Positions 6,277 to 20,235 of a DNA stretch of 32,000 nt are shown here, one piece after another. The position numbers and the translations under genes are program-made. Positions within the stretch are counted from its first letter, which is position 1. Each line of letters begins with the position of its first letter. The stretch lies in IMG/VR virus record IMGVR_UViG_3300020577_012950, positions 36,117 through 68,116 of that record. One strand, given 5' to 3'. Source of the stretch: a virus. The notes below the pieces were generated by a model, which had not been told where the DNA came from, did not search any database, and saw nothing but the letters and a program-made list of their open reading frames with translations.

Positions 6277-9200
6277 TTACTTGCCGGGGAACAGCTTCCC
6301 GAAGATGCCGGCACGCTTGGTGACGCCAGCCGCTTTGGGGCTGTTGAGACTCGGCAGGGCCGTACCGACCTTCGGGGGCCGGGCCACGGTGTCAAGGCCT
6401 GAGCTGACAGGGGCTTTGGGCTGGAATGCACCCTGAGCTGCAGCGTGGAAGCCCTGGGCGCGAGCCGCCTGCTGAGCCTGGCCAGGAAGCTTGACCGGAG
6501 CCGCAGCGGGGGCGCCGAAGCCAGGAGCAGTTGAGGCAGCGTGAGACTGCATCTGACGCTTCACGTCAGGGGTGAGCGAAGCCTTTTCCAGCTCAGCCTT
6601 CATGGCCGGGGCCTTGGGAGCTGCCGGAGCCTTGGGGGCAGAGGTGGGAACGGCGGTGCCCATGTTCTTGCCGCTGGGGGGCTTGGCCATCGGCGGCTGA
6701 GCCTTGGCGAAGCTGGTGTTCTTCGTCGGGCCAGGGTTGCCACCGGGCTGAATGTCTTCGCCCATCAACTTCGGACCACCGGGGATGCTCTTGCCGAGCT
6801 TGTTCTTTTCCTGGTTGTCGTTGCTGTCGTGGAAGACGGCCTTGCTGCCGGCGTCGACGCGGGACCGGTGGACAACCTTGAGGGACTTGGCCTCGGGGTG
6901 GTCCTTGCGGGCGTCGTGCGCATCTTCCTTGTCTTCATTGCCACCGACGACTCGACCCGTCTCTTTGTGGACCAGGTAGTAGTTGTACGGGTCGCTGTCC
7001 GACTTCTGGATGTCGACGAGGCTCTTTGCCAGGGCCTTTCCAGGCAGAATGTAGCCGCCGCTGCCGGGGTCCTTCTTGGTGCCGGCGTTGATGACCTTGG
7101 TTTTTGCCGGAGGCATCTTCGAGCCGGCCACGGTGTGGTTGTCGCTGGCCTTGCCCTTGGCGTCGACGAGGTCAGACTTGCCAATCTTCATGTCGCCGCA
7201 CTTGTTCAGCTCGTGAGCCTTGCCGCAGGTCTTGCAGAGAGCTTCAGCCTTCTTCTCAGACATCGCCATGGCCGGACCCGGGGCCTGAGTCGTCATGTTC
7301 GGAGTCGGGCCCGTGCTGGGACCGGTCTTCTTCATGGTCTTGTCGATGCCCTTGCCATTGGCCTTGCCGGGCGGGACGTCCTCGGTGCCCATGCTGGCCT
7401 GCATACCCTGGTTGTGGTTGTGGGTCGGAATCGCAGCCTTCTTCAGCTCGCGGTCGCGCAGGGCCTTGATTTCCGTCTCAAAGGCCTGGACCTTCTCGCG
7501 GGTCGCCTTCAGGAGAATTGACTGCGCTTCTTCGATACTGTAGGTCTTCTCGGACATGTTGTTTCCTTCAGCAGTAGAGATTGCCGTTTCAGACTTGCCC
7601 CAGAACTTGGCAGCAACCTGCTTGTCCTTCTCTGAGGAGGGAGCAGGGCGGACCCGGGAGGGGTTGTAGTCGGGCTCCTGGGTCGTCCAAGCGGTTTTTG
7701 GGTGATAGGTCCCGTGCTCCGCATAGGGCACGGTGGCCGGGGAATGACCGGGCAGGTGCTGTTCAGTGGTGGTGAAGTTGTGGTCGCTGATGCTGTTTTC
7801 GACATCGCGGGGGCCGATGTCACCTTGCACCGTGTAACCGGCCTTGCTGGCTCGGGCGCGCAGACTCGCGAGACTACGAGCGGTGAGGCTCATCTTCTGT
7901 CCGTTGACATGACCTCGACGTTGAAGGCTGCTGGTCATGAAGGTCGGCACGACAGCCTCTTCAATGTCCGGCAGCTTCACCGCCGGCGCTGTATGCTCTT
8001 TGAAGTCGCCTGTACCACCGTTCTCGTAGAACTGGTCGCGAGCCACCGGCTCATTGGCGAAGCCGGAGGCGTTGGCGATGTTTTCCTTCTCGTCCTTCGG
8101 CCAGGCCTTCTGCAGCTCCTTCTTCATCGTGACTTTGGCGCCGACACCGAGTCCGGCGTTCTGCACGGAGTTCAGGTGCTGGGTCAGCATGGAGTGAATC
8201 TGCTTGCCCTGGGGGTGAGCATGAAGAGCTGAGAGGAAGGCGGGGTGGTGCATGTGGCTGGTGATGAAGCGGCCACGAGCCGGGTCACCCTTGGGCAGAG
8301 CCTTCAGGCCACCCATGAAGCCTTCAACACTGTTGTGCAGGGCCGGAGCAGTCGGAGCCTGGGGCTGACCCGGAAGAGCCTTCTTGATGTCGTTCTTCTG
8401 CATGTTCTTCCCGAGGACGTCATGAAGGCCCTGAAGCCCGAGCTGGTGCCCGGCGTCACGAACCATCTGAAGTGAGGTGTGGAGTGGAACCTTGTGGCTG
8501 TGCGGAACAAAGCCCTCACCGCTGGGCTCGGTGAACTTGCCGGTGACGGCGCGATGAGCCGCGTCGTGCATGACGGTGTTCAGCTCCCGGTGGAAGTCTT
8601 CGTCTTTGACGTTGACGCCGATTTGCTTGGACAATTCCCGCTGCTTGTGGGCAGCCAACCACTCCCAGTGAACGGCGCGCAGGGCTTCGTTCATGGTGCG
8701 GTGCGTACCGAGCTTGCCGATGCGTCGACCTTCGCCGTAGAGCTTGTTGACTTCCGGGTAGGTGAGGGCGTGGCTCAGCTCGTGAATCTGTCGCCAGCCT
8801 CGCGTGTAGGCCTCGTGACCGAAGTCGCCACCACTGGCAGGCGTCGGGTCATAGACCATGAGGTGGCCGGTGTTGTAGTTCTTGTTGCCCAGGTCCGGCT
8901 TGCCGTACTTGCCGCCGGCGTAGTAGGTCTTGAAACCGTGGTCGGAGACGAGCTTCTCAATCTGCGGCAGCTTAGACTCGTACGGGTAGTGGAGCAGGTT
9001 CGAGCCCTTGCCGGGCTGGACGTTGCCGAAGGGCAGGGCGAACTGCTTGTAGGTGCTGACACCGACACCAGCCGCCTGGTCGTTCTTGGGCGGGGCGTCC
9101 ATGTGCGGGTGCGGCTCACCGTGCTTGGCCAGACCTGGGAGCTGGGGCGCAGCCAGGTCTTCCTGGTTGTGGTCGGTGTGGCCGTCGTGCCACTCGTAGT

Positions 9201-10122
9201 TGTGGGGGTGGGGCTTGGAAATAGAGTCGAGATGTTGCCACCACTCCTTCTCCTCCAGTTTGTTGGAGCGCTTGTCGCCCGGGTAAATCGGAAACACGGG
9301 CTCAGCGGCCAAGGTCTGATCGTCCGGAACTCCGGCGTAGCGCTGCTTGACGTTCGCACGCTGGATGTCCCTGAGTCTGGATGCGGTTTCAGGTTGATTG
9401 TGGATCTGCCCGACGCGGTGGATGTAGGTATACAGACCCTGCCCGGCGCCGCTCATCGGAGGAAGGCCACCCTGGGGCTTGTCCATGGGGACAGTATTCA
9501 ATCGAGTCCCGAGGCCGGCCTTCCCGGAGTACCCTTTCGTGGGCGTGAAGCCCTGCTCTTGGAGTTGATCAGCCAAGAGCACGTTGCCGACAAACGGCGG
9601 CTTCGCCTTCAAGAGCTTCTGCGTCTCAGCCTTGAGGTAGGCGGCAGCTTCTTCGACCGTGTACTCGCTCTTGTTGATTGGGTCCAGGGGGTGCTTCTGG
9701 CTCCAGTCGAAGTTGATGCGGGCGTAGCCGTGACCGGGGACGGTCGTGTAGAAGTCCGGGGGCGGGGTGTCGAAGTGCTCGATGGGGTTCTGCAGCTCGG
9801 CGCTGTGGTACTTGCCTTCGTGCTCACCGTTCGTGTAAACGAGCTTGTGCTGGCCGTTCTGGCTGTGGACCACCGACTCCTGGCCGAACATCTTCCCGAG
9901 CTGCTGCATCTGCTGCAGTGTCGGGTTGTGGACGATGTAGGAGCGTTCAGGTTCCTGGTACTTGCCACTGGTCTCTTCGGCGTGGAGGCCCATCTGCTGC
10001 AGGGCGTTACCGAGTGCCTCATGTCCGCCCTCAACCTGGGGTTTGAACAGGGGCTTCTCACCGCTCAGCAGGCCGAACGTGGATCCACTGAAAATGGGGT
10101 GTTTCGGCTGGCCAGCGTACAT
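6277..10122 (-). CDS. giant virion-associated-looking protein (1281 aa) with an HExxH metallopeptidase-type motif and Pro/Ala/Lys-rich low-complexity tail
   Basis: Start is set at ATG 10122 (MYAGQPKHPIF), just after the upstream stop (10127-10129). The track's 36-codon extension overlaps the previous gene. HELSH is encoded at 8784-8770 in the context GWRQIHELSHALTYPEVNKLYGEGRR. The C-terminal 250 aa or so are P/A/K/G-rich. Confidence 0.75.
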   Translation of the reverse strand: MYAGQPKHPIFSGSTFGLLSGEKPLFKPQVEGGHEALGNALQQMGLHAEETSGKYQEPERSYIVHNPTLQQMQQLGKMFGQESVVHSQNGQHKLVYTNGEHEGKYHSAELQNPIEHFDTPPPDFYTTVPGHGYARINFDWSQKHPLDPINKSEYTVEEAAAYLKAETQKLLKAKPPFVGNVLLADQLQEQGFTPTKGYSGKAGLGTRLNTVPMDKPQGGLPPMSGAGQGLYTYIHRVGQIHNQPETASRLRDIQRANVKQRYAGVPDDQTLAAEPVFPIYPGDKRSNKLEEKEWWQHLDSISKPHPHNYEWHDGHTDHNQEDLAAPQLPGLAKHGEPHPHMDAPPKNDQAAGVGVSTYKQFALPFGNVQPGKGSNLLHYPYESKLPQIEKLVSDHGFKTYYAGGKYGKPDLGNKNYNTGHLMVYDPTPASGGDFGHEAYTRGWRQIHELSHALTYPEVNKLYGEGRRIGKLGTHRTMNEALRAVHWEWLAAHKQRELSKQIGVNVKDEDFHRELNTVMHDAAHRAVTGKFTEPSGEGFVPHSHKVPLHTSLQMVRDAGHQLGLQGLHDVLGKNMQKNDIKKALPGQPQAPTAPALHNSVEGFMGGLKALPKGDPARGRFITSHMHHPAFLSALHAHPQGKQIHSMLTQHLNSVQNAGLGVGAKVTMKKELQKAWPKDEKENIANASGFANEPVARDQFYENGGTGDFKEHTAPAVKLPDIEEAVVPTFMTSSLQRRGHVNGQKMSLTARSLASLRARASKAGYTVQGDIGPRDVENSISDHNFTTTEQHLPGHSPATVPYAEHGTYHPKTAWTTQEPDYNPSRVRPAPSSEKDKQVAAKFWGKSETAISTAEGNNMSEKTYSIEEAQSILLKATREKVQAFETEIKALRDRELKKAAIPTHNHNQGMQASMGTEDVPPGKANGKGIDKTMKKTGPSTGPTPNMTTQAPGPAMAMSEKKAEALCKTCGKAHELNKCGDMKIGKSDLVDAKGKASDNHTVAGSKMPPAKTKVINAGTKKDPGSGGYILPGKALAKSLVDIQKSDSDPYNYYLVHKETGRVVGGNEDKEDAHDARKDHPEAKSLKVVHRSRVDAGSKAVFHDSNDNQEKNKLGKSIPGGPKLMGEDIQPGGNPGPTKNTSFAKAQPPMAKPPSGKNMGTAVPTSAPKAPAAPKAPAMKAELEKASLTPDVKRQMQSHAASTAPGFGAPAAAPVKLPGQAQQAARAQGFHAAAQGAFQPKAPVSSGLDTVARPPKVGTALPSLNSPKAAGVTKRAGIFGKLFPGK

Positions 10123-10126
10123 GGGT

Positions 10127-12001
10127 CTAAGATTGGGTTCGGGAAAGGGTGTCGAACTCGCCAATCCACAGGGCCTCGTCGGGGTTCGTGTCAGCGGGCA
10201 GAGTCTCTCCACCGATGACCCGGAACCCACCCGGATTCACGGCCCCGACAACCTGGCTCTCCTCTTTGGGCCAGTACTGCCGGCAGTACCCGGTCAGGTT
10301 CACGTACCGGGTGAAGGCGAACTCGGCCTCAGACTGGTCATCCTTGCTGAAGTCGGTGCTGCCGAACATCGTCCGCTCCAGCCCCTCGGTCTCCAGGTAC
10401 TGCTGCTTGTACCGGAGCAGACAGAAGACGAGGATGCTGTGCAGCCACGTCAAGTACACGGGCTCAGCGTCGACGTGGACCCCGATTTGGAACTGGTCCC
10501 GGTACCAGACAGACTCCAGGCTTCGGACCTGGTTGGGACGACGAGACTTGACAATGGCGCCACGCAGGTCCAGTCCAGCTTTGGGGGCGATACGGAAGCT
10601 CTCATCCTCCAGCACCTCCAGCACCTCATGCTCACCGCCTTGACGGTCGATGAGGAAGAAGCCGGTCAGAATCGGAACCCGGGTCAGGTCGGCTTCGCTG
10701 GGCCTGCCGATGCCCGTCGCCGGGTCATAGCTGGCCGGGGTGAAGGTGGCCAGGGCCGGCCAGGCCGCGTCGGGGTCCGGCTCGGAGCTGATGTAGTGAA
10801 TGTCGCCGAGCGTCACCTCAGACTCGGAGCTGCTCTGCAGCTTGATGCTGATACAGGGCGACTGGGCCTCGTCAAGAATCGGCACAGCCAGGACGGGGAT
10901 TTTGGTCCGCATGAACCAGCGGCTGGCCGCCTCAATCTCGCCCTCGTACTGGCCCCGAGTCAGGCCATCGCTGCGGAGCGTCGAGAAGACGTACTCCAGG
11001 AGCCAGGGGTTGCGGCGCAGGTCCTCCAGGGCCGAGACGATGCCGTTCCGCAGCACCAGCTCAGACTGAAAGATGCCCATCGGCTCAGGCTCAGTAGCTG
11101 CTGCGATGCTGGTGCTGGTGCTGAGTTCCGGCAGAACCTCGACGCTGACGCTGGAGACCTTCTCGGCGAAAGTCTTCGGCCAGTACTGTCGGACGTAGCC
11201 GGTCAGGTTCAGGTAGCGGCTGAACACGAATTCAGCCTCAAACATGGTGTTGCGGTCGAACTCAGCAGCCGAGAACACGGACCTCTCGAAGCCACGCGCC
11301 TCCAGGTACTGCTGCTTGTACCGGAACAGGCAGAAGGCAACGATGCTGTAGAGCCAGCTCAGGTAAACGGGCTCGCCATCGACGTGGACCCCCAGCTGGT
11401 AGGTTTCTCGGTACGAGCAGGACTCCAGGCTGACGGTGAATACTGGCCGCTGCCCCTTGATGGTCGTGGACCGAAAGTCAAGGCCAACCGTCGGTGCGAC
11501 ACGGACCTGGTCGTTGTCAAGGATTTCCAGAATCTCAGCTGCAGTGCCCTTGGTGTCGACCAGGGACATGCCCTCGACCAGGACCAGGGCGTCCTGAATG
11601 TCGGCAGGGATGGTCAAGATGCCGGTCGCCGGGTCGTAGTCGTAGATGCTGAAGTTCGGCACCAGGGCCGGCCAGGCGCTGTCGTTGTCTTCGCTGCTCT
11701 TGTAGTGGACGTCACCGAGCGTCACCTCAGCCTCATCACTGGCGGCCAGGGCGATGCTGATGCAGGGCGTCTTGGCTTCGTCCAGGCGGGGCGTCATCAC
11801 GACCGGAATTTCCTGCCTGAGGAACCACTCCTTGGCCCTGGCCTTCTCTGCAGTCGAAATCTTCGAGAAAACGGAGTCCAAGAGCTTGCCATCATTCTTG
11901 CGCAGCTCCCGCAGAGCCTGCAGAAGAGCGGTACGAATGATGATGTCGCTCTGGTGAATGCCAATGGCTTCAGACTGAATGCTGTTCGAGTCGATTGGCA
12001 T
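10127..12001 (-). CDS. virion (baseplate-region?) protein made of two homologous ~300-aa halves (624 aa)
   Basis: Both halves share blocks such as ...PCISI.L..S.E.EVTLGD.HY...AWPAL... and ...GVHVD.EPVYL.WL.SI..FCL.RYKQQYLE..G.ER..F....F......AEF.F.RY.NLTGY.RQYWPK. No family recognised. Confidence 0.75.
   Translation of the reverse strand: MPIDSNSIQSEAIGIHQSDIIIRTALLQALRELRKNDGKLLDSVFSKISTAEKARAKEWFLRQEIPVVMTPRLDEAKTPCISIALAASDEAEVTLGDVHYKSSEDNDSAWPALVPNFSIYDYDPATGILTIPADIQDALVLVEGMSLVDTKGTAAEILEILDNDQVRVAPTVGLDFRSTTIKGQRPVFTVSLESCSYRETYQLGVHVDGEPVYLSWLYSIVAFCLFRYKQQYLEARGFERSVFSAAEFDRNTMFEAEFVFSRYLNLTGYVRQYWPKTFAEKVSSVSVEVLPELSTSTSIAAATEPEPMGIFQSELVLRNGIVSALEDLRRNPWLLEYVFSTLRSDGLTRGQYEGEIEAASRWFMRTKIPVLAVPILDEAQSPCISIKLQSSSESEVTLGDIHYISSEPDPDAAWPALATFTPASYDPATGIGRPSEADLTRVPILTGFFLIDRQGGEHEVLEVLEDESFRIAPKAGLDLRGAIVKSRRPNQVRSLESVWYRDQFQIGVHVDAEPVYLTWLHSILVFCLLRYKQQYLETEGLERTMFGSTDFSKDDQSEAEFAFTRYVNLTGYCRQYWPKEESQVVGAVNPGGFRVIGGETLPADTNPDEALWIGEFDTLSRTQS
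10129..10135 (-). promoter_or_regulatory. YAATCTT element 6 nt upstream of ATG 10122 (leaderless geometry)
   Basis: Minus strand reads gaaccCAATCTTagacccATG. The element overlaps the TAG stop of the upstream gene. Confidence 0.4.
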
Positions 12002-14769: not shown

Positions 14770-15687
14770 CTACCAACAGGTGATGATGACAAGTCCAGAA
14801 CCGCCGTCTCCGCCTCGACCACCAGTCGTACCGCCGCCACCGCCGCCACCACCACTGCCGTAGCCACCGTTGCCACCGTTGCCACCGACACCGGCGTTGG
14901 AGGCCGAGCCACCGGTTCCGCCGAAGCTGAACAGAGGCTGCCAGATGGTAAAGCCGTCGCTGCCGGCATTGGAGCCCGCAGCCGGAGTTGCAGGCCGCTG
15001 CTCGCTGAGCCAGGAATTGGTGATGGCCGTCCAAGCTCCACCGGCAAAGTCAGCGCTCGTAGTGCCAGCTCCACCACTACCCCCGGTGCAAATGACGGAG
15101 GTTGTAGGAATGGTCTGGGCCGTACCGTTGGCGCCGGCGACAGCTCCACCGGCGACACCGATTTGGCCCGCAATGACGTCAAAGTGGCCAAGGCCGGCCA
15201 GGGGCATGGAGCCGATGACAGCAATCGTGCCGGCCGTGCCGGCCGCGCCGACGGCAGCACCGGTGCCAGTACCGCCACCGACGGCACCTGCAGCACCACT
15301 GATGGCGACAACATTCGAGGCGGTCGTGTTTGGGGCAATGGCGACGTAACTGAGGACACCTGAGCCGGCCGTACCACCGCCCGAGCCAACGCCCTGACCG
15401 CCGGCGCCGACCTGCACGTAGAGACGGTCGGGAAGGAACTGGATGGGAATGGTGACTCGGGTCACAGCTGAGCCGCCGCCGCTTCCACCACCACCTCGGG
15501 CAGCTGCTGCAGCGGCCGTGAAACCGCCGCCACCACCGCCGCCACCGCCGATGCAGACGATGTTGCACATGCTGACGCCACGAGGCTTCAGCCACGTCAT
15601 CCACTGCGTGTTCGTCACAGTGGAGGGGCGGTTGAAGACCTGGACATCCGCATGGTTCTGACCAGGCAGGTGGCGCCAGTCGTTCAT
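14770..15687 (-). CDS. glycine-rich fibre/spike-like protein (305 aa)
   Basis: Start is at ATG 15687 (MNDWRHLPGQNHADV), 1 nt after the upstream stop. It has runs of G9 and G8, many GxGG repeats, and ends ...GGSGLVIITCW. The track's 55-codon extension overlaps the previous gene. Confidence 0.7.
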   Translation of the reverse strand: MNDWRHLPGQNHADVQVFNRPSTVTNTQWMTWLKPRGVSMCNIVCIGGGGGGGGGFTAAAAAARGGGGSGGGSAVTRVTIPIQFLPDRLYVQVGAGGQGVGSGGGTAGSGVLSYVAIAPNTTASNVVAISGAAGAVGGGTGTGAAVGAAGTAGTIAVIGSMPLAGLGHFDVIAGQIGVAGGAVAGANGTAQTIPTTSVICTGGSGGAGTTSADFAGGAWTAITNSWLSEQRPATPAAGSNAGSDGFTIWQPLFSFGGTGGSASNAGVGGNGGNGGYGSGGGGGGGGTTGGRGGDGGSGLVIITCW

Positions 15688-15688
15688 C

Positions 15689-16123
15689 TTAGTACTCTCC
15701 GCCGATGGGGCAGACAACCCAGCCAGCAGCAACAGCAGCACCGAGGCCGCAGTAGATGCGGAACCCCGGGGGCAGGGCCACGTTGATGGGGTAGTCGATT
15801 TCCACCGTGGCTGCCGTGGTGATGGCAGTCGTCGCCGGCAGGGAGACTTCACCGAAGAAGACGTTATTGGCCGCAGTGGTGTTCGCTGAGCCGTTATTGA
15901 AGTAGATTCGCATCACGGCAGCGACGTTCGTGCCGGCAGCCTTGAAGCGGAGACGCTGGATGAAGCTGCCGTTGGTGGCATCGGCGGTGAAGACCAGGGA
16001 GTTGTTGGCGCTGGCGCCGGTGTAGTCAGCGGCAGCAGCCGTGATGGCCTGGTTCATGCCGGTGCCGTTGTTGTTGCTGACGTCACCGAGCTTGCTGAAG
16101 ATGGGGAAGGTATTTGCAGCCAT
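15689..16123 (-). CDS. hypothetical fibre-module protein (144 aa)
   Basis: The ORF reads MAANTFPIFSKLGDVSNNNGTGMNQ... and is Ala/Asn/Thr-rich and beta-like. An AGGAG SD is present. It is tightly packed between fibre-type genes. Confidence 0.65.
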   Translation of the reverse strand: MAANTFPIFSKLGDVSNNNGTGMNQAITAAAADYTGASANNSLVFTADATNGSFIQRLRFKAAGTNVAAVMRIYFNNGSANTTAANNVFFGEVSLPATTAITTAATVEIDYPINVALPPGFRIYCGLGAAVAAGWVVCPIGGEY

Positions 16124-16839: not shown

Positions 16840-17148
16840 ATGGACGAAACAACGATGAAGAATGCGAATCGGCTCCTGCAGCGGTTCGTCTCAGACACTG
16901 AATCCAAGCTCCGGTACGGGCTGCGCCTCCGCCAGGCCTACTTCGAGGCGGTACAGCGCGGGGAGGACCCGAAGAACTATAGGACCGAGTTCATCTCCAA
17001 CACCTCGACGGAAGTCTTCGCCTGGCTGACAGAGAAAGCCCGGGAATTCAACAAGAAATTCCCCCAGGACCGCATGAGCGGACACGACTTCCTGGACATC
17101 CTGGCAACAGCCCACCACCGGCTCCAGGAGAAGCTGAAGAAGGGCTAG
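16840..17148 (+). CDS. hypothetical protein (102 aa) on the opposite strand inside the late block
   Basis: The ORF reads MDETTMKNANRLLQRFVSDTESKLRYGLRLRQAYFEAVQRGEDPKNYR... with Lys/Glu/Phe-containing composition typical of the real genes here. Its stop shares the palindrome CTAG (17145-17148) with the convergent gene. Confidence 0.65.
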   Translation: MDETTMKNANRLLQRFVSDTESKLRYGLRLRQAYFEAVQRGEDPKNYRTEFISNTSTEVFAWLTEKAREFNKKFPQDRMSGHDFLDILATAHHRLQEKLKKG

Positions 17149-17972
17149 AACTTCTTCGAGACGGAAATCAGGATTCTGTCCTTGATGGTCGTCTCGAATT
17201 CCTCAATGGCCCAGCGGGCAGCCTCATCGAAGAACCTCTTGGCTTCCAGGCCGGGATGAATCCAACGTCCGGTGCCTTTGTGTTTGCTGGAGGCGACACG
17301 GAACGTCATGATGCCCTTCTTGACAGATTCCTTGCCAGCCTTGTCCTTCACCTTCTGTTGGTAGATGCGGACACCCTGCAGGAAGGGAATGCCGGTCGGC
17401 CCCTGCTTGACCTTGCCTACAGGTCCATGGCCCTGACCTGGCCCATTGGCCGTCTTCAGAGGATTCTTCATGATGTCGAAGCTGTGGAGCAGGCCCAGCT
17501 TCGGCTTACCGGTGTCATCCTTCTCGATGCCGCCGTAGGGGATGTTCCGCTTCTTCATCTCGGCGCGCAGGGTGTCGGTGAGGTTCTGCTGGGCGGGAGT
17601 ACTTGAGGTCGGGCCCTTGTTCTGCTTGAAGGGCACCACCAGGTAGCGGCTGCCGTCTTTGGCCGTCTTCGCCTTCTTGGACTTGAGCAGGCCGTCCAGC
17701 ATGTCCTTGTTCGGTGGGATGCCTTCCTCAATCCACATCGCCGACTTGTCCAGGGTGATGACCCAGGTGTCCTCGTCGGCCTGGTCAATCTTCATCGCCT
17801 GGATGTACTTGTCGCGGGTGCTGTGGAGCTTCTCCTGCACCTCTTCCTGGATGTGGGCAAAAGTCATCGCAGACAAGTCACGGGCAGCGTCCTTCATCGC
17901 CTTGTCGGCGGCGGGACGAAACTCCTTGACGAGGTCGTTGAGATTGCCGAGGTCTAGGTTGAGGAAGAACAA
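17145..17972 (-). CDS. putative neck/tail-completion protein (275 aa), weak HK97 gp10-like resemblance
   Basis: TTG start at 17972, 5 nt after the upstream TAA. The first ATG is at 17897, but codons 17972-17898 already have G/C-rich third positions. STRDKYIQAMKIDQADEDTWVITLDKSAMWIEEG and RWIHPGLEAKRFFDEAA resemble the gp10-like pattern. The track's 133-codon N-extension overlaps the previous gene and is Arg/Ser/Thr/Pro-rich junk. Confidence 0.6.
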   Translation of the reverse strand: MFFLNLDLGNLNDLVKEFRPAADKAMKDAARDLSAMTFAHIQEEVQEKLHSTRDKYIQAMKIDQADEDTWVITLDKSAMWIEEGIPPNKDMLDGLLKSKKAKTAKDGSRYLVVPFKQNKGPTSSTPAQQNLTDTLRAEMKKRNIPYGGIEKDDTGKPKLGLLHSFDIMKNPLKTANGPGQGHGPVGKVKQGPTGIPFLQGVRIYQQKVKDKAGKESVKKGIMTFRVASSKHKGTGRWIHPGLEAKRFFDEAARWAIEEFETTIKDRILISVSKKF

Positions 17973-17976
17973 GAGC

Positions 17977-19629
17977 TTACCCGCTTGGATTCCGGCTGCT
18001 GGTGGGGGTGCCGTCTGGGGCCATGACGAGACCTGAGCGGACTGAACGCCACTTCGTCTTCTGCGTCTCCGGGTCGCGGACCTTGATTTCTCCACCTTCG
18101 TGGTTGGCGCTGGGGCCTGGGTCGACCTGGGCGCCGACGGGGAGAACGACCTGGTGGCGACCGGTCTTGCCGGCTTCCAGACTGGCTTTGTCCAGCTCCT
18201 CCGGGTCCTGCTTGACCTTGTTCGCCCAGTGGTCCTTGTGGTCGTGGCAGTAGTTACCGGTGACCTGTCGCTGGCAGCGTCGCTCCCCGAGTTTCCACTT
18301 GCACTGACCGACCTTGCCCATGGCCTTCTGCAGCTGGCCGGCGCCCTGGTCCTGGCCCTGGGCCAGGGCAATCATGGCCTGCACCAGGCCTTTGACGCTG
18401 TTGTACATGTCAGGGTTCTGGGTCTTCATCTGCTCCAGCTGGGGCGCCTTGGCCCGGACGTCCTGGAGAATCTTCACAACCTGAGCCCGGACGTCGTCCT
18501 GGAGGCCGGTCGGGACCTGACCTTTCTCTTCCGGCTGGGCTTGGGCTGCGGCCTGGTGGAAGAGCTGCTCGAAGTCCTGGGGCTGACCAGGCTCAATGCC
18601 GAGGGTGGTGCGGGCCGTCTCGGCTTCGCTGTGCTCGCTGGCTTCACGGGGTGCAGCCGGAGCTGCGGGGTGAGACTGACTGGCGCCGCTGAAGCCTGCT
18701 CCAACCCCGGCGTTCATGCCCGGCTGGGCCTTGTTGATGGGAAGTCGGTCTTCACCGACGTAGTCTCTCAGGTCATTGTACTCACCAGTCGGAGGCATGC
18801 CCGGATGTGTGAGTCCGTTGACAACCATCAGCGGGTAATCACCGGTCCCCATCGTCTGCTGGTGATGAAGCATGGCAGACTTGATGGCTTGGTGCGGGCT
18901 GTCGGCGTGGAGCACGTAGGTGTAGGGAGCGTGACCGTCCTCAGCCTCAGGGCCGGCGAGAGTCACGGTGTGGACTGGCCGGTTCTGGACCGGCGGCGGT
19001 GCCGGAACCCCACCCTCAGACTGAATCTGGTCAGCAATCACCAGATTCGATTCGTGCGGAGGCTGCTTGCCGTCTCCGGTCATCATCGGAGCCGAGGGGC
19101 TTCGATTCAGGGCAGCAGGAACTGAGAAGTGGCCAGGGGCAACAGGGCCGACCACCTTCTTGGGGCCGCCCAGAGCCTTCTGCAGGCCGGCCGAGTCCGG
19201 ATTCAGGTACTCGTCGTAGAGCTTCTCGCCCTCAGGCTTCTCCTGCAGCTGCTCCAGGAGTTCATTTACTTCCTGACTGTAGAGCTGGATCCGGTTCCCG
19301 CCCTGGAGCTTGGCAGCCATCAGACTCTTGTCGGCCTCGCTGAGCCGGGTCCCGACGCCGACGCTGACGCTTGAGCCGACGGCACCCTCGTACTGGGCTC
19401 GAATCTTCGGCAGCTCTTCCAGGTGGTCGGCCTCAACCTCCAACCGGCCTTCGTCACCGCCGATGTTGATGACCTTGCCGCCATGGCTCTCAACCCAGCT
19501 GCGCCAAATTCCGTTGCCACGGTCGATGGCCTGGCTGATGCGGGCCACCTCCTCGGGCTTGTCGGCAAGACTGGCCCTGCCAACCATGCGGCCAATGTGG
19601 TCACCGTCGAAGCTCACGAAGACTTTCAT
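17977..19629 (-). CDS. protein (550 aa) with an N-terminal minimal GGDEF/Cas10-type palm domain (mCpol-like), a long low-complexity linker and a C-terminal Cys/His cluster
   Basis: Start is at ATG 19629 (MKVFVSFDGDHIGRMVG). Landmarks are FDGD (aa 7-10), IGGDEG (aa 56-61) and SVGVGTRLSEADKSLMAAKLQGGNRIQLY. About 330 aa rich in P/Q/G/A follow, then CKWKLGERRCQRQVTGNYCHDH. Confidence 0.75.
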   Translation of the reverse strand: MKVFVSFDGDHIGRMVGRASLADKPEEVARISQAIDRGNGIWRSWVESHGGKVINIGGDEGRLEVEADHLEELPKIRAQYEGAVGSSVSVGVGTRLSEADKSLMAAKLQGGNRIQLYSQEVNELLEQLQEKPEGEKLYDEYLNPDSAGLQKALGGPKKVVGPVAPGHFSVPAALNRSPSAPMMTGDGKQPPHESNLVIADQIQSEGGVPAPPPVQNRPVHTVTLAGPEAEDGHAPYTYVLHADSPHQAIKSAMLHHQQTMGTGDYPLMVVNGLTHPGMPPTGEYNDLRDYVGEDRLPINKAQPGMNAGVGAGFSGASQSHPAAPAAPREASEHSEAETARTTLGIEPGQPQDFEQLFHQAAAQAQPEEKGQVPTGLQDDVRAQVVKILQDVRAKAPQLEQMKTQNPDMYNSVKGLVQAMIALAQGQDQGAGQLQKAMGKVGQCKWKLGERRCQRQVTGNYCHDHKDHWANKVKQDPEELDKASLEAGKTGRHQVVLPVGAQVDPGPSANHEGGEIKVRDPETQKTKWRSVRSGLVMAPDGTPTSSRNPSG

Positions 19630-19635
19630 GAGGTG

Positions 19636-19642
19636 AAGATTG
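19636..19642 (-). promoter_or_regulatory. YAATCTT element 6 nt upstream of ATG 19629 (leaderless geometry)
   Basis: Minus strand reads tctggaggCAATCTTcacctcATG. A GGAGG 13 nt upstream of the ATG is an alternative, rather distant SD. Confidence 0.4.
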
Positions 19643-19651
19643 CCTCCAGAC

Positions 19652-19680
19652 TTGACGGGCGAAAATAGCTCATGTACATT
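19652..19680 (+). promoter_or_regulatory. sigma70-like promoter giving a leaderless PRTase transcript
   Basis: Plus strand reads TTGACG (19652-19657), 17 nt, TACATT (19675-19680), 6 nt (ccggct), ATG 19687. Confidence 0.45.
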
Positions 19681-19686
19681 CCGGCT

Positions 19687-20235
19687 ATGTCCACCGTCCT
19701 CGCACCGGTCCACACGCACGAAATCTTCGACCCCTGCACCTTTGCCATCAAGGTGGCCAAAGTGGTAGCTCGCATCCAGGAGTTGAGATCCGAGATTGAT
19801 TTCAATGCCTTAGCTGGGTGTGGCAACTCCGGCCTGCCGCTGCTCGGGGCCGTTGCCATCCAGCTCCAGATGCCCTTCTTCGCAGTCCGCAAGACCATGG
19901 ACACGTCAAACGACAGCCACCTCGCCAACGGCTACATCCCCGACGGAGGCTGTCGATACCTGATTATCGACGACCTCATCAGCAGCGGCAGGACGACGGA
20001 ACGAATCCACAAGCACATCGCAGACACGGTGAAGACCCACTGCCCGTCGATGACGAGCCTGGTCCGGCCTGCCGGCATCCTGCTCTACATGTCGCGGTAC
20101 TTCAAGAACAGCTTCAGCGTCGTGACGCAACCTCCGGTCCTGGATCCCGTCACCGGCGACATCCTCCGGCTCAGAAAGACTGAAAGCGTGCCGGTGTTCT
20201 TCGTTGACAAGCTCATCCCTCAGGCCGTAAAGTGA
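19687..20235 (+). CDS. type-I phosphoribosyltransferase-domain protein (182 aa)
   Basis: The PRPP-binding loop is CRYLIIDDLISSGRTTERI: hydrophobic strand, two acidic residues, hydrophobic residues, then S-G-x-T. An in-frame ATG at 19672 would add 5 codons, but it lies inside the predicted promoter. Confidence 0.75.
   Translation: MSTVLAPVHTHEIFDPCTFAIKVAKVVARIQELRSEIDFNALAGCGNSGLPLLGAVAIQLQMPFFAVRKTMDTSNDSHLANGYIPDGGCRYLIIDDLISSGRTTERIHKHIADTVKTHCPSMTSLVRPAGILLYMSRYFKNSFSVVTQPPVLDPVTGDILRLRKTESVPVFFVDKLIPQAVK

Follow-up and report, generated by a model that had tools for sequence, protein, structure and literature searches.

We analysed a stretch of 32,000 nucleotides of DNA from a large soil phage related to Myxococcus phage Mx1 (IMG/VR virus record IMGVR_UViG_3300020577_012950, positions 36,117 to 68,116), here called the window, and within it the minus-strand gene at 17977..19629, whose 550-residue product begins with a minimal palm domain of the mCpol (minimal CRISPR polymerase) type. 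It is a member of a large and so far uncharacterised family found only in phages, on metagenomic contigs of Mx1-like myoviruses and in Mx1 itself. We use the name mCpol-X for this family of phage proteins with an N-terminal mCpol domain and a conserved C-terminus. Judging from its active-site residues, the window member is probably catalytically active. The best explanation overall, which we put forward tentatively, is that it would be a late-made, virion-associated effector of the polyvalent type with which an Mx1-like myovirus synthesises a cyclic nucleotide.

An mCpol-type palm at the N terminus

Residues 1–120 of the window protein are a minimal palm of the mCpol type, far beyond chance. 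The mCpol domain is said to have been defined by Burroughs et al. in 2015. Its Pfam model, PF18182, matches residues 4–116 with 41.3 bits (E 2e-10, profile positions 1–113 of 114) against a gathering cut-off of 26.4 bits, and the isolated domain scores 45.8 bits. The score with the NCBIfam model NF033576 (mCpol) is 31 bits, under the cut-off of 40, and the protein is therefore a divergent member. A phmmer search of all PDB sequences gave as its sole matches the two solved mCpol proteins, 9nwn and 9mnr/9pd0. An AlphaFold2 (AF2) model of residues 1–135, with 45 homologues as input, has a mean predicted local distance difference test (pLDDT) score of 94.4 and the order of strands and helices expected for a minimal palm. 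Its six best PDB matches in Foldseek are all chains of OptS, the synthase of the bacterial defence system Panoptes (9pd0, 9mnr and 9nwn; 116–125 aligned columns), with template modelling (TM) scores of 0.72–0.77 by query and 0.80–0.86 by target and root-mean-square deviations (r.m.s.d.) of 1.6–2.8 Å. The best structural match in BFVD is an uncharacterised protein of an uncultured phage.

Other palm families fit less well. GGDEF domains and Cas10 palms rank below OptS in Foldseek, with TM ~0.6; the likeness to GGDEF domains is partial (TM ~0.57, r.m.s.d. 4–5 Å), and the GGDEF model PF00990 has no Pfam match to the window protein even at E up to 10. Cas10-Cmr2_palm2 is the second Pfam match at 18.5–22.6 bits (22.6 for the isolated domain), below its cut-off of 27, and PADLOC adds nothing beyond a Cas10 match at E 0.009. 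Palm 2 of Cas10 or Cmr2 is thus a distant homologue (Foldseek TM 0.6–0.7) but, unlike Cas10, the window protein has none of the other Cas10 domains: it is without the HD domain, the second palm, the D2 and D4 domains and the Csm or Cmr partners. The original prediction, made from the sequence alone, had described a minimal mCpol-like palm too short for a canonical GGDEF domain and had proposed structure prediction with Foldseek as a check; that check returned a high-confidence palm with OptS ahead of GGDEF and Cas10, and both parts of the description are borne out.

Active-site residues

The D-x-D strand, the GGDE hairpin and the A.K..G.NR helix named in the original prediction are all present: the protein opens MKVFVSFDGDH, which contains D8 and D10, carries GGDEG at residues 57–61 and has an AAKLQGGNR helix. 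D10 is invariant among the 45 homologues and G9 is conserved in at least 90%. The phmmer alignment places D8 on Asp6 and D59 on Asp57 of KpOptS, the two positions at which mutants of that enzyme are inactive (PMC12657218). DGDH/GGDEG, the pattern of the window protein, is also the commonest in the family (67 of 147 representatives), and all three acids are retained in 93 of the 147.

The alignment also bears on the substrate. S32 of the window protein is aligned with S30 of KpOptS and D36 with N34, and at position 30 of KpOptS serine favours adenine and asparagine favours guanine (PMC12657218). Because S32 aligns with the adenine-favouring S30, ATP would be the likeliest substrate. Two protomers together form the active site of OptS (PMC12657218); hence, the phage protein would have to oligomerise in order to cyclise.

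A fixed frame around a variable region

Translation from 19629 to 17977 returns the 550-residue protein quoted in the original prediction. GTG 19719, an upstream start that would give a longer reading, was ruled out because most homologues begin MK(V/L)(F/Y)VSFDGDH. The window matches JGI and Logan metagenome contigs identically, and a protein identical to that of the window (P0001) is called on them.

Among 5.8 billion proteins searched, 85 relatives were found. P0001 alone covers the full query length, and the next matches cover at most 50% of it at 52–82% identity. With the 86-residue C-terminus alone, a word-index search found two fragments and an exhaustive phmmer search was needed: the last 78 residues gave 129 matches among 1.84 billion cluster representatives (50% identity), almost always at the very C-terminal end of proteins 300–1459 residues long. 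An mCpol-like N-terminus is present in 169 of the 192 collected proteins, the remainder being mostly short fragments. The idea that other cargo shares the C-terminal module as a general tag for capsid targeting was rejected, since nearly all of its carriers also have the mCpol N-terminus.

The order of the frame is fixed. The mCpol domain (residues 1–120) is followed by an EKLYDEYLNP linker, a G-S-x-S-x-PAAP...SEHSE segment, a helical module and a C-terminus of 70 residues. The features of the gene are as follows.

17977..19629, minus strand: whole gene mCpol-X, 550 codons and a stop, translated; member of the family of Mx1-like phages
19270..19629, minus strand: mCpol palm domain, residues 1–120 (Pfam PF18182, AF2 model, Foldseek matches to OptS)
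19600..19608, minus strand: D8-G9-D10, first metal-binding strand, D8 aligned with catalytic Asp6 of KpOptS (phmmer, 9nwn/9mnr)
19450..19461, minus strand: G57-G58-D59-E60 hairpin, D59 aligned with catalytic Asp57 of KpOptS
18694..19197, minus strand: lineage-specific insert, residues ~145–312, missing in the closest homologues such as P0002
18625..18639, minus strand: SEHSE acidic motif, residues 331–335, in the family consensus
18340..18501, minus strand: helical module, residues 377–430 (VRAQVVKILQDVRAKAPQLEQMK..NPDMYNSVKGLVQAMIALAQ), from AF2 and family conservation, Mx1 included
18238..18303, minus strand: Cys/His cluster CKWKLGERRCQRQVTGNYCHDH, residues 443–464, placed by pattern search
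17980..18189, minus strand: C-terminal module that defines the family, residues 481–550 (phmmer and alignment)

The original prediction had described about 330 P/Q/G/A-rich residues followed by a Cys/His cluster. The richness is there, at a moderate 42%, but the region is not featureless, holding the insert, the SEHSE motif and the helical module. SEHSE is found in 84 of the 169 family members and might, speculatively, be a site of maturation cleavage or docking. The helical module is modelled by AF2 as helices with a block pLDDT of 87–95. The Cys/His cluster, located at the residues listed above, occurs in only 21 of the 169 members, and AF2 confidence there is low; it is an optional module, probably a zinc knuckle.

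The C-terminus has the consensus LEAGKTGRH.V.LPVG.Q.D...G.IKV...KTKW..VR.G.VM..DG.P.SSRNP.G. The last 227 residues of the protein were modelled with a mediocre pLDDT of 68.9 as a small beta hairpin region; the model had no significant structural match in the PDB, and a C-terminal profile found nothing below E 0.09 among PDB sequences. Neither the window protein nor the conserved modules seen in its relatives have a family in PHROGs, and the variable regions of three relatives matched PHROGs of unknown function.

Between the fixed parts lies a region that differs from member to member. The 168-residue insert is private to the window protein, and other inserts occupy the same position in relatives. 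Residues 144–320 (window 18670–19200) had no tblastn match in 50,697 phage records, and the insert matched nothing in Pfam or PHROGs. A scan of 58 long members identified DUF5661 (21), GNAT (5), radical SAM (3), ART-PolyVal (2) and DUF3990 (1) in the variable region, and other mCpol-X members carry Phage_T4_Y00F. In P0175 the radical SAM match reaches 60 bits in Pfam and two further members are alike, an unusual cargo for a structural-module protein.

Carriers and gene order

Among the 50,697 phage records the sole match to mCpol-X is Myxococcus phage Mx1 (169.6 kb; protein WNM70340). Relatives lie on contigs of 150–181 kb, and IMG/VR holds 12 mCpol-X loci. A pattern scan with a trimmed alignment, over 185,579 species of bacteria and archaea with one genome apiece, turned up no relative.

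The surroundings are conserved. In every locus examined, one side carries divergent genes for deoxynucleoside monophosphate (dNMP) kinase, NT5C and phosphoribosyltransferase. The other consists of mCpol-X, a protein of 262–292 residues, usually a small open reading frame (ORF) on the opposite strand, fibre and tail genes, a giant DUF3293 protein and the sheath. In the window, mCpol-X heads the minus-strand run of neck, fibre, tail-terminator and sheath genes, in agreement with its description as the first gene of the virion-gene strand. The gene next to it is the following.

17145..17972, minus strand: downstream neck-module gene, 275 residues (PHROG 16819; tblastn to Mx1 and SP10-like phages)

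This neighbour is tightly coupled to mCpol-X, the pair being kept in loci L002–L006. Its product is 45% identical to that of Mx1 (tblastn) and homologous to gp145 of the SPO1-like Bacillus phage SP10, whose gene directly precedes those of the tail terminator (Pfam SP10_terminator) and the sheath. We therefore place mCpol-X at the opening of the neck and tail block. SP10 gp143 and gp144, upstream of the shared neck protein, were considered as counterparts of mCpol-X and rejected, as hhalign found no similarity.

Several other genes of the block deserve mention. Window 10127–12001 (minus strand) encodes a 624-residue protein whose N-terminus weakly matches the SP10 tail terminator family and is followed by a long extension; an SP10-like terminator together with the gp145 homologue indicates a distant relationship between the neck module of these Myxococcus-type phages and that of SPO1-like Bacillus phages. 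Between this gene and the sheath gene, window 6277–10122 (minus strand) encodes a 1281-residue protein with a weak N-terminal DUF3293 and SAM-lyase-like match; orthologues of 934 to ~1419 residues hold the same position in relatives, and the protein may be another virion-associated effector. A helical ORF of 102 residues (window 16840–17148, plus strand) lies within the structural block on the opposite strand; its position is kept in L002–L004 and L006 (100–105 residues), and it has no family match. The glycine-rich, minor-tail-like ORF that starts from GTG at window 14770–15852 (minus strand) overlaps a 144-residue ORF at 15689–16123 (minus strand), and the JGI call of 305 residues from ATG 15687 is more likely.

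A promoter-like element shared with virion genes

Upstream of mCpol-X we found a promoter-like element, and promoters of a second type at other genes.

19630..19642, minus strand: CAATCTT and a 6-nucleotide spacer abutting the ATG, promoter-like element
19652..19680, plus strand: sigma-70-like TTGACG-17-TACATT, divergent, 6 nucleotides before ATG 19687, for the phosphoribosyltransferase and nucleotide-metabolism genes
6266, 10135, 16815, 19642, 26650, 29129 and 30346, minus strand: YAATCTT sites in the window
19652–19680, 20204–20233, 23746 and 30356, plus strand, and 1503 and 1165, minus strand: sigma-70-like promoters in the window

CAATCTT followed by six nucleotides and ATG occurs twice in the window, before mCpol-X and before the gene of the 1281-residue protein, against 0.01 occurrences expected, so the arrangement earlier claimed to be common to these two genes (as YAATCTT) is upheld. 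YAATCTT is biased to the minus strand (10 sites versus 4 on the plus strand), and seven of the ten lie at most 33 nucleotides upstream of an ORF with ATG start, including those of the sheath, the Gp80-like fibre, the giant protein and mCpol-X. Two spacing classes can be distinguished, one of exactly 6 nucleotides without a Shine–Dalgarno sequence and one of 15–33 nucleotides with AGGAG. The motif is also found in L001, L004, L006, L007, L008 and L010–L015; L004, L006 and Mx1 have the same pattern, and in Mx1 it precedes the portal, the tailspike and other genes. The mCpol-X orthologues of L004, L006, L010, L011, L013 and L014 keep the 6-nucleotide class; those of L005 and L019 have it with a single mismatch. 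The flanking non-structural genes have instead TTGAC(A/G)-17/18-TAnnnT, 6–8 nucleotides before ATG.

YAATCTT probably serves as a −10-like element in a class of late promoters specific to the phage; a sigma-like protein is annotated in Mx1. The element supports a putative co-regulation of mCpol-X with the virion genes, and late expression is probable. The 6-nucleotide spacing without a Shine–Dalgarno sequence implies a leaderless mRNA for mCpol-X, and the genes behind the sigma-70-like promoters would also give leaderless mRNAs. The phosphoribosyltransferase probably starts at ATG 19687, not at 19672.

A promoter class common to late genes and an intact catalytic site would also suit an enzyme that stays unpackaged and raises a cyclic nucleotide late in the producing cell, where it could keep guard effectors off until lysis, affect the timing of lysis or rewire cyclic dinucleoside monophosphate (c-di-NMP) physiology such as motility, exopolysaccharide or receptor display. 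Iyer et al. suggest an interference of phage GGDEF domains with host nucleotide signalling (PMC5512222), which is in keeping with such a role. A soluble enzyme would, however, have no need of conserved helical and C-terminal modules or of a fixed position at the head of the block, and the persistence of catalytically dead members speaks against it. Moreover, the ART-PolyVal and like fusions of relatives point to delivery, since these domains are typical of injected polyvalent proteins. We regard a purely intracellular enzyme as unlikely.

Comparison with known systems

The closest known relative is OptS of Panoptes (KpOptS and VnOptS). The ~120-residue palm is shared (TM 0.77 by query and 0.86 by target, r.m.s.d. 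1.6–1.9 Å), as are the two catalytic aspartates (D8/Asp6 and D59/Asp57) and the serine at the base-contact position (S32/S30). The phage protein differs from OptS in that sequence identity is only 22–24% and in that it has a canonical GGDEG hairpin, largely missing from OptS (PMC12657218). Its mCpol domain is the N-terminus of a 550-residue protein rather than a stand-alone protein of ~14 kDa, and it is encoded in the late structural block of a lytic phage rather than in a bacterial defence island.

Known Panoptes systems pair the synthase with an effector (S-2TM-beta, CARF-TM or SAVED), and among the neighbours of mCpol-X, which are neck, fibre, tail and nucleotide-metabolism genes, no effector or sensor domain was found. 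Panoptes is encoded by bacteria or archaea, often beside CBASS genes, whereas mCpol-X is absent from the 185,579 species genomes and present in IMG/VR and Mx1. Having neither effector partner nor bacterial locus nor stand-alone synthase, it is not a Panoptes system. It might nevertheless be a self-contained, phage-borne relative of one, acting in defence or superinfection exclusion, with the mCpol signal restraining an effector further along the polypeptide, towards its C-terminus; outside these phages, synthase–effector conflict systems are the only known setting of mCpol, fusions to HEPN and 2TM exist (PMC12657218), and the N- and C-terminal modules always co-occur. Set against this, no transmembrane segment, CARF, SAVED, S-2TM-beta or nuclease domain was found in the window protein, the C-terminal hairpin model is without a significant structural match, and the late structural block of lytic phages is an atypical place for the cargo of a defence system, from a family that bacterial genomes lack. 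This reading seems to us very improbable.

Polyvalent phage proteins encoded among virion genes have been inferred to be packaged and injected (Iyer, Burroughs, Anantharaman and Aravind 2017, PMC5512222). Rare GGDEF domains occur in them, with a suggested interference with host nucleotide signalling (PMC5512222). Like these proteins, mCpol-X lies among virion genes, with which it shares YAATCTT, and at the level of the family it joins mCpol to ART-PolyVal, GNAT, radical SAM or DUF3990 in one polypeptide. It differs in having no MuF, portal or zincin-like peptidase domain, in a cyclase that is mCpol and not GGDEF, and in a frame with its own uncharacterised helical and C-terminal modules; its packaging is a prediction.

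A further analogy is with Alt of phage T4, an ADP-ribosyltransferase packaged in the head and injected, whose N-terminal capsid-targeting sequence is cleaved by the prohead protease. Like Alt, mCpol-X would be a late-made enzyme encoded near structural genes and acting on the next host (PMC5512222). The fold and chemistry of mCpol-X are unrelated to those of Alt.

The original prediction knew of no described phage system of this architecture. That stands in so far as phage-encoded mCpol is not discussed in the main texts of the two 2025 Panoptes papers or of the 2026 type II paper, but the Mx1 homologue WNM70340 is listed without discussion as 'mCpol+?' in Supplementary Table 3 of PMC12657218, in the only 'virus' row found, and GGDEF domains of phages appear in PMC5512222. 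In the literature we found nothing on anti-Panoptes, on DUF5661 or on mCpol with SMODS. The same Supplementary Table 3 lists Panoptes type I and II operons in the Myxococcota Archangium, Corallococcus and Nannocystis (PMC12657218). In M. xanthus, an island with a cyclic-oligonucleotide-based antiphage signalling system (CBASS) and type III-B CRISPR blocks Mx4 and not Mx1, for which the authors suggest extra countermeasures (PMC11506125).

A second cyclase in the head module

The head module of Mx1 encodes a 243-residue GGDEF protein (WNM70324, 'nucleotide cyclase'; L008 17173–17904) with an intact GGDEF motif, between the gene of a giant 'putative prohead protease' and the capsid gene. Metagenomes yielded 45 homologues, among which fusions to DUF3293, SAM-lyase-like or Y00F domains occur; a scan of IMG/VR with the single Mx1 sequence found nothing, and an alignment query found relatives. 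L029 has an ORF of 1367 residues or more that ends in the GGDEF domain and shares 36% identity (E 6e-171) with the 'prohead protease' of Mx1. The domain is also seen in the head modules of L024 and L028, the latter from metagenome 3300033066, the same as the window.

These GGDEF proteins resemble mCpol-X in belonging to the palm cyclase superfamily and in their location in structural modules of the same genomes. They share Phage_T4_Y00F with the mCpol-X family and DUF3293 and a SAM-lyase-like domain with the 1281-residue protein. They differ from mCpol-X in their full-length GGDEF domain and their position, with no homology outside the palm. The proposal that the GGDEF protein of Mx1 compensates for its dead mCpol was rejected, since IMG/VR contigs carry a GGDEF gene side by side with an mCpol-X gene whose catalytic residues are intact; neither therefore substitutes for the other. 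The presence of a second cyclase in the head module makes cyclases in structural modules a recurrent trait of this phage group.

Mx1 encodes two more proteins worth noting. One is a 1479-residue GNAT, ART-PolyVal and NUDIX protein annotated only as 'NUDIX hydrolase' (L008 24404–28843), and the other a 619-residue PI3/4-kinase/HipA-like protein (L008 28851–30710) a few genes upstream of the mCpol-like gene. The Mx1-like group is evidently rich in polyvalent-type effectors within its structural modules.

Loss of catalysis and other points of doubt

The remaining 54 of the 147 representatives, among them Mx1 as the only cultured phage, are without the catalytic acids and retain the fold, the helical module and the C-terminal module. 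The Mx1 homologue reads SIDH and LGAVG at the two motifs and scores 21 bits with Pfam mCpol. Catalysis is therefore not the universal or sole role of the family, which also has a non-catalytic, probably structural one. The simplest reading would be of a virion-associated frame with the cyclase as an ancestral payload that is often retained.

That one third of the family, including a cultured phage, keeps the whole frame around degenerate motifs is also what would be expected if mCpol-X were primarily a structural or morphogenetic virion protein of the neck, collar or internal head, its mCpol fold serving for oligomerisation or as a scaffold and catalysis being a relic or minor extra. The gene is invariably coupled to the neck-module gene homologous to SP10 gp145, the helical module and conserved extreme C-terminus may resemble connector docking, and OptS forms stable tetramers (PMC12657218), indicating that the fold can act as an assembly module. 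However, two thirds of the representatives strictly conserve the GGDEG hairpin as well as the three acids, which argues for selection on catalysis. The variable region, too, has repeatedly gained enzymes (ART, GNAT and radical SAM), as would be unusual in a purely structural protein, and the SP10 proteins at the equivalent positions show no similarity. A primarily structural role, the main rival reading, is in our view doubtful.

Besides the loss of catalysis in part of the family, other points weigh against a delivered effector. The 58 long members scanned have no MuF, portal or peptidase domain, which we used as a proxy for packaging, and the helical and C-terminal modules match nothing in Pfam, PHROGs or the PDB. 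The gene lies in the neck and tail block and not among the head genes, and a protein displayed outside the neck would not be injected. The probable late expression is read from a sequence motif. Since mCpol is the sole recognisable enzyme domain of the window protein, 'polyvalent' fits the family and not this member.

Proposed mode of action

With these points in mind, we return to a late-made, virion-associated cyclase. The protein would be made late together with the particle proteins, and its helical and C-terminal modules would attach it to the virion or build it in; incorporation and delivery are plausible. It would then act once the next cell has been infected, or at a late stage in the cell that produces it. 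There the protomers would oligomerise, forming the active site between two of them as in OptS, and condense nucleoside triphosphates, likely ATP, to a cyclic di- or oligonucleotide. The most speculative step is the last, in which the product would interfere with host cyclic-nucleotide immunity. By one route, a Panoptes-type guard effector would be held inhibited while the phage depletes the signals of CBASS or type III CRISPR; by another, the product would jam the sensors of CBASS or type III CRISPR. Action against Panoptes, or jamming of host signalling, is speculative. The original prediction had proposed a late or virion-delivered enzyme that might make, mimic or swamp immune messengers of the host; the support found here extends to the intact mCpol palm, the element in common with virion genes and the polyvalent-type fusions of relatives. 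In its most specific form the proposal is of a phage 'decoy synthase', a late, virion-delivered active mCpol that resupplies the Panoptes inhibitor or floods CBASS and type III sensors and so lets the phage deplete immune signals of the host while not tripping the guard; we think this improbable. If true, it would be a third layer of the cyclic-nucleotide arms race, a counter to a counter-counter-defence.

That mCpol enzymes make 'decoy' nucleotides, by which bacteria sense the sponges and nucleases of phages, was shown only in 2025, and their biology has so far been described from the host side only. The present analysis defines a large, phage-only family in which an apparently active mCpol fronts a modular, probably late protein, with a cultured relative that infects Myxococcus. 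Panoptes in Myxococcota, the resistance of Mx1 to the CBASS and type III CRISPR island and the head-module GGDEF proteins of the same phages give this family its relevance. On a conservative reading, a CRISPR-polymerase fold has been recruited into a protein of a phage structural module, and its repeated loss of catalysis is a natural experiment. If mCpol-X is active and delivered, phages would synthesise second messengers of the immune type, besides degrading or sequestering them. This would change the expected evolution of Panoptes-type guards, and the family would be a source of new cyclases and possibly of new nucleotide products.

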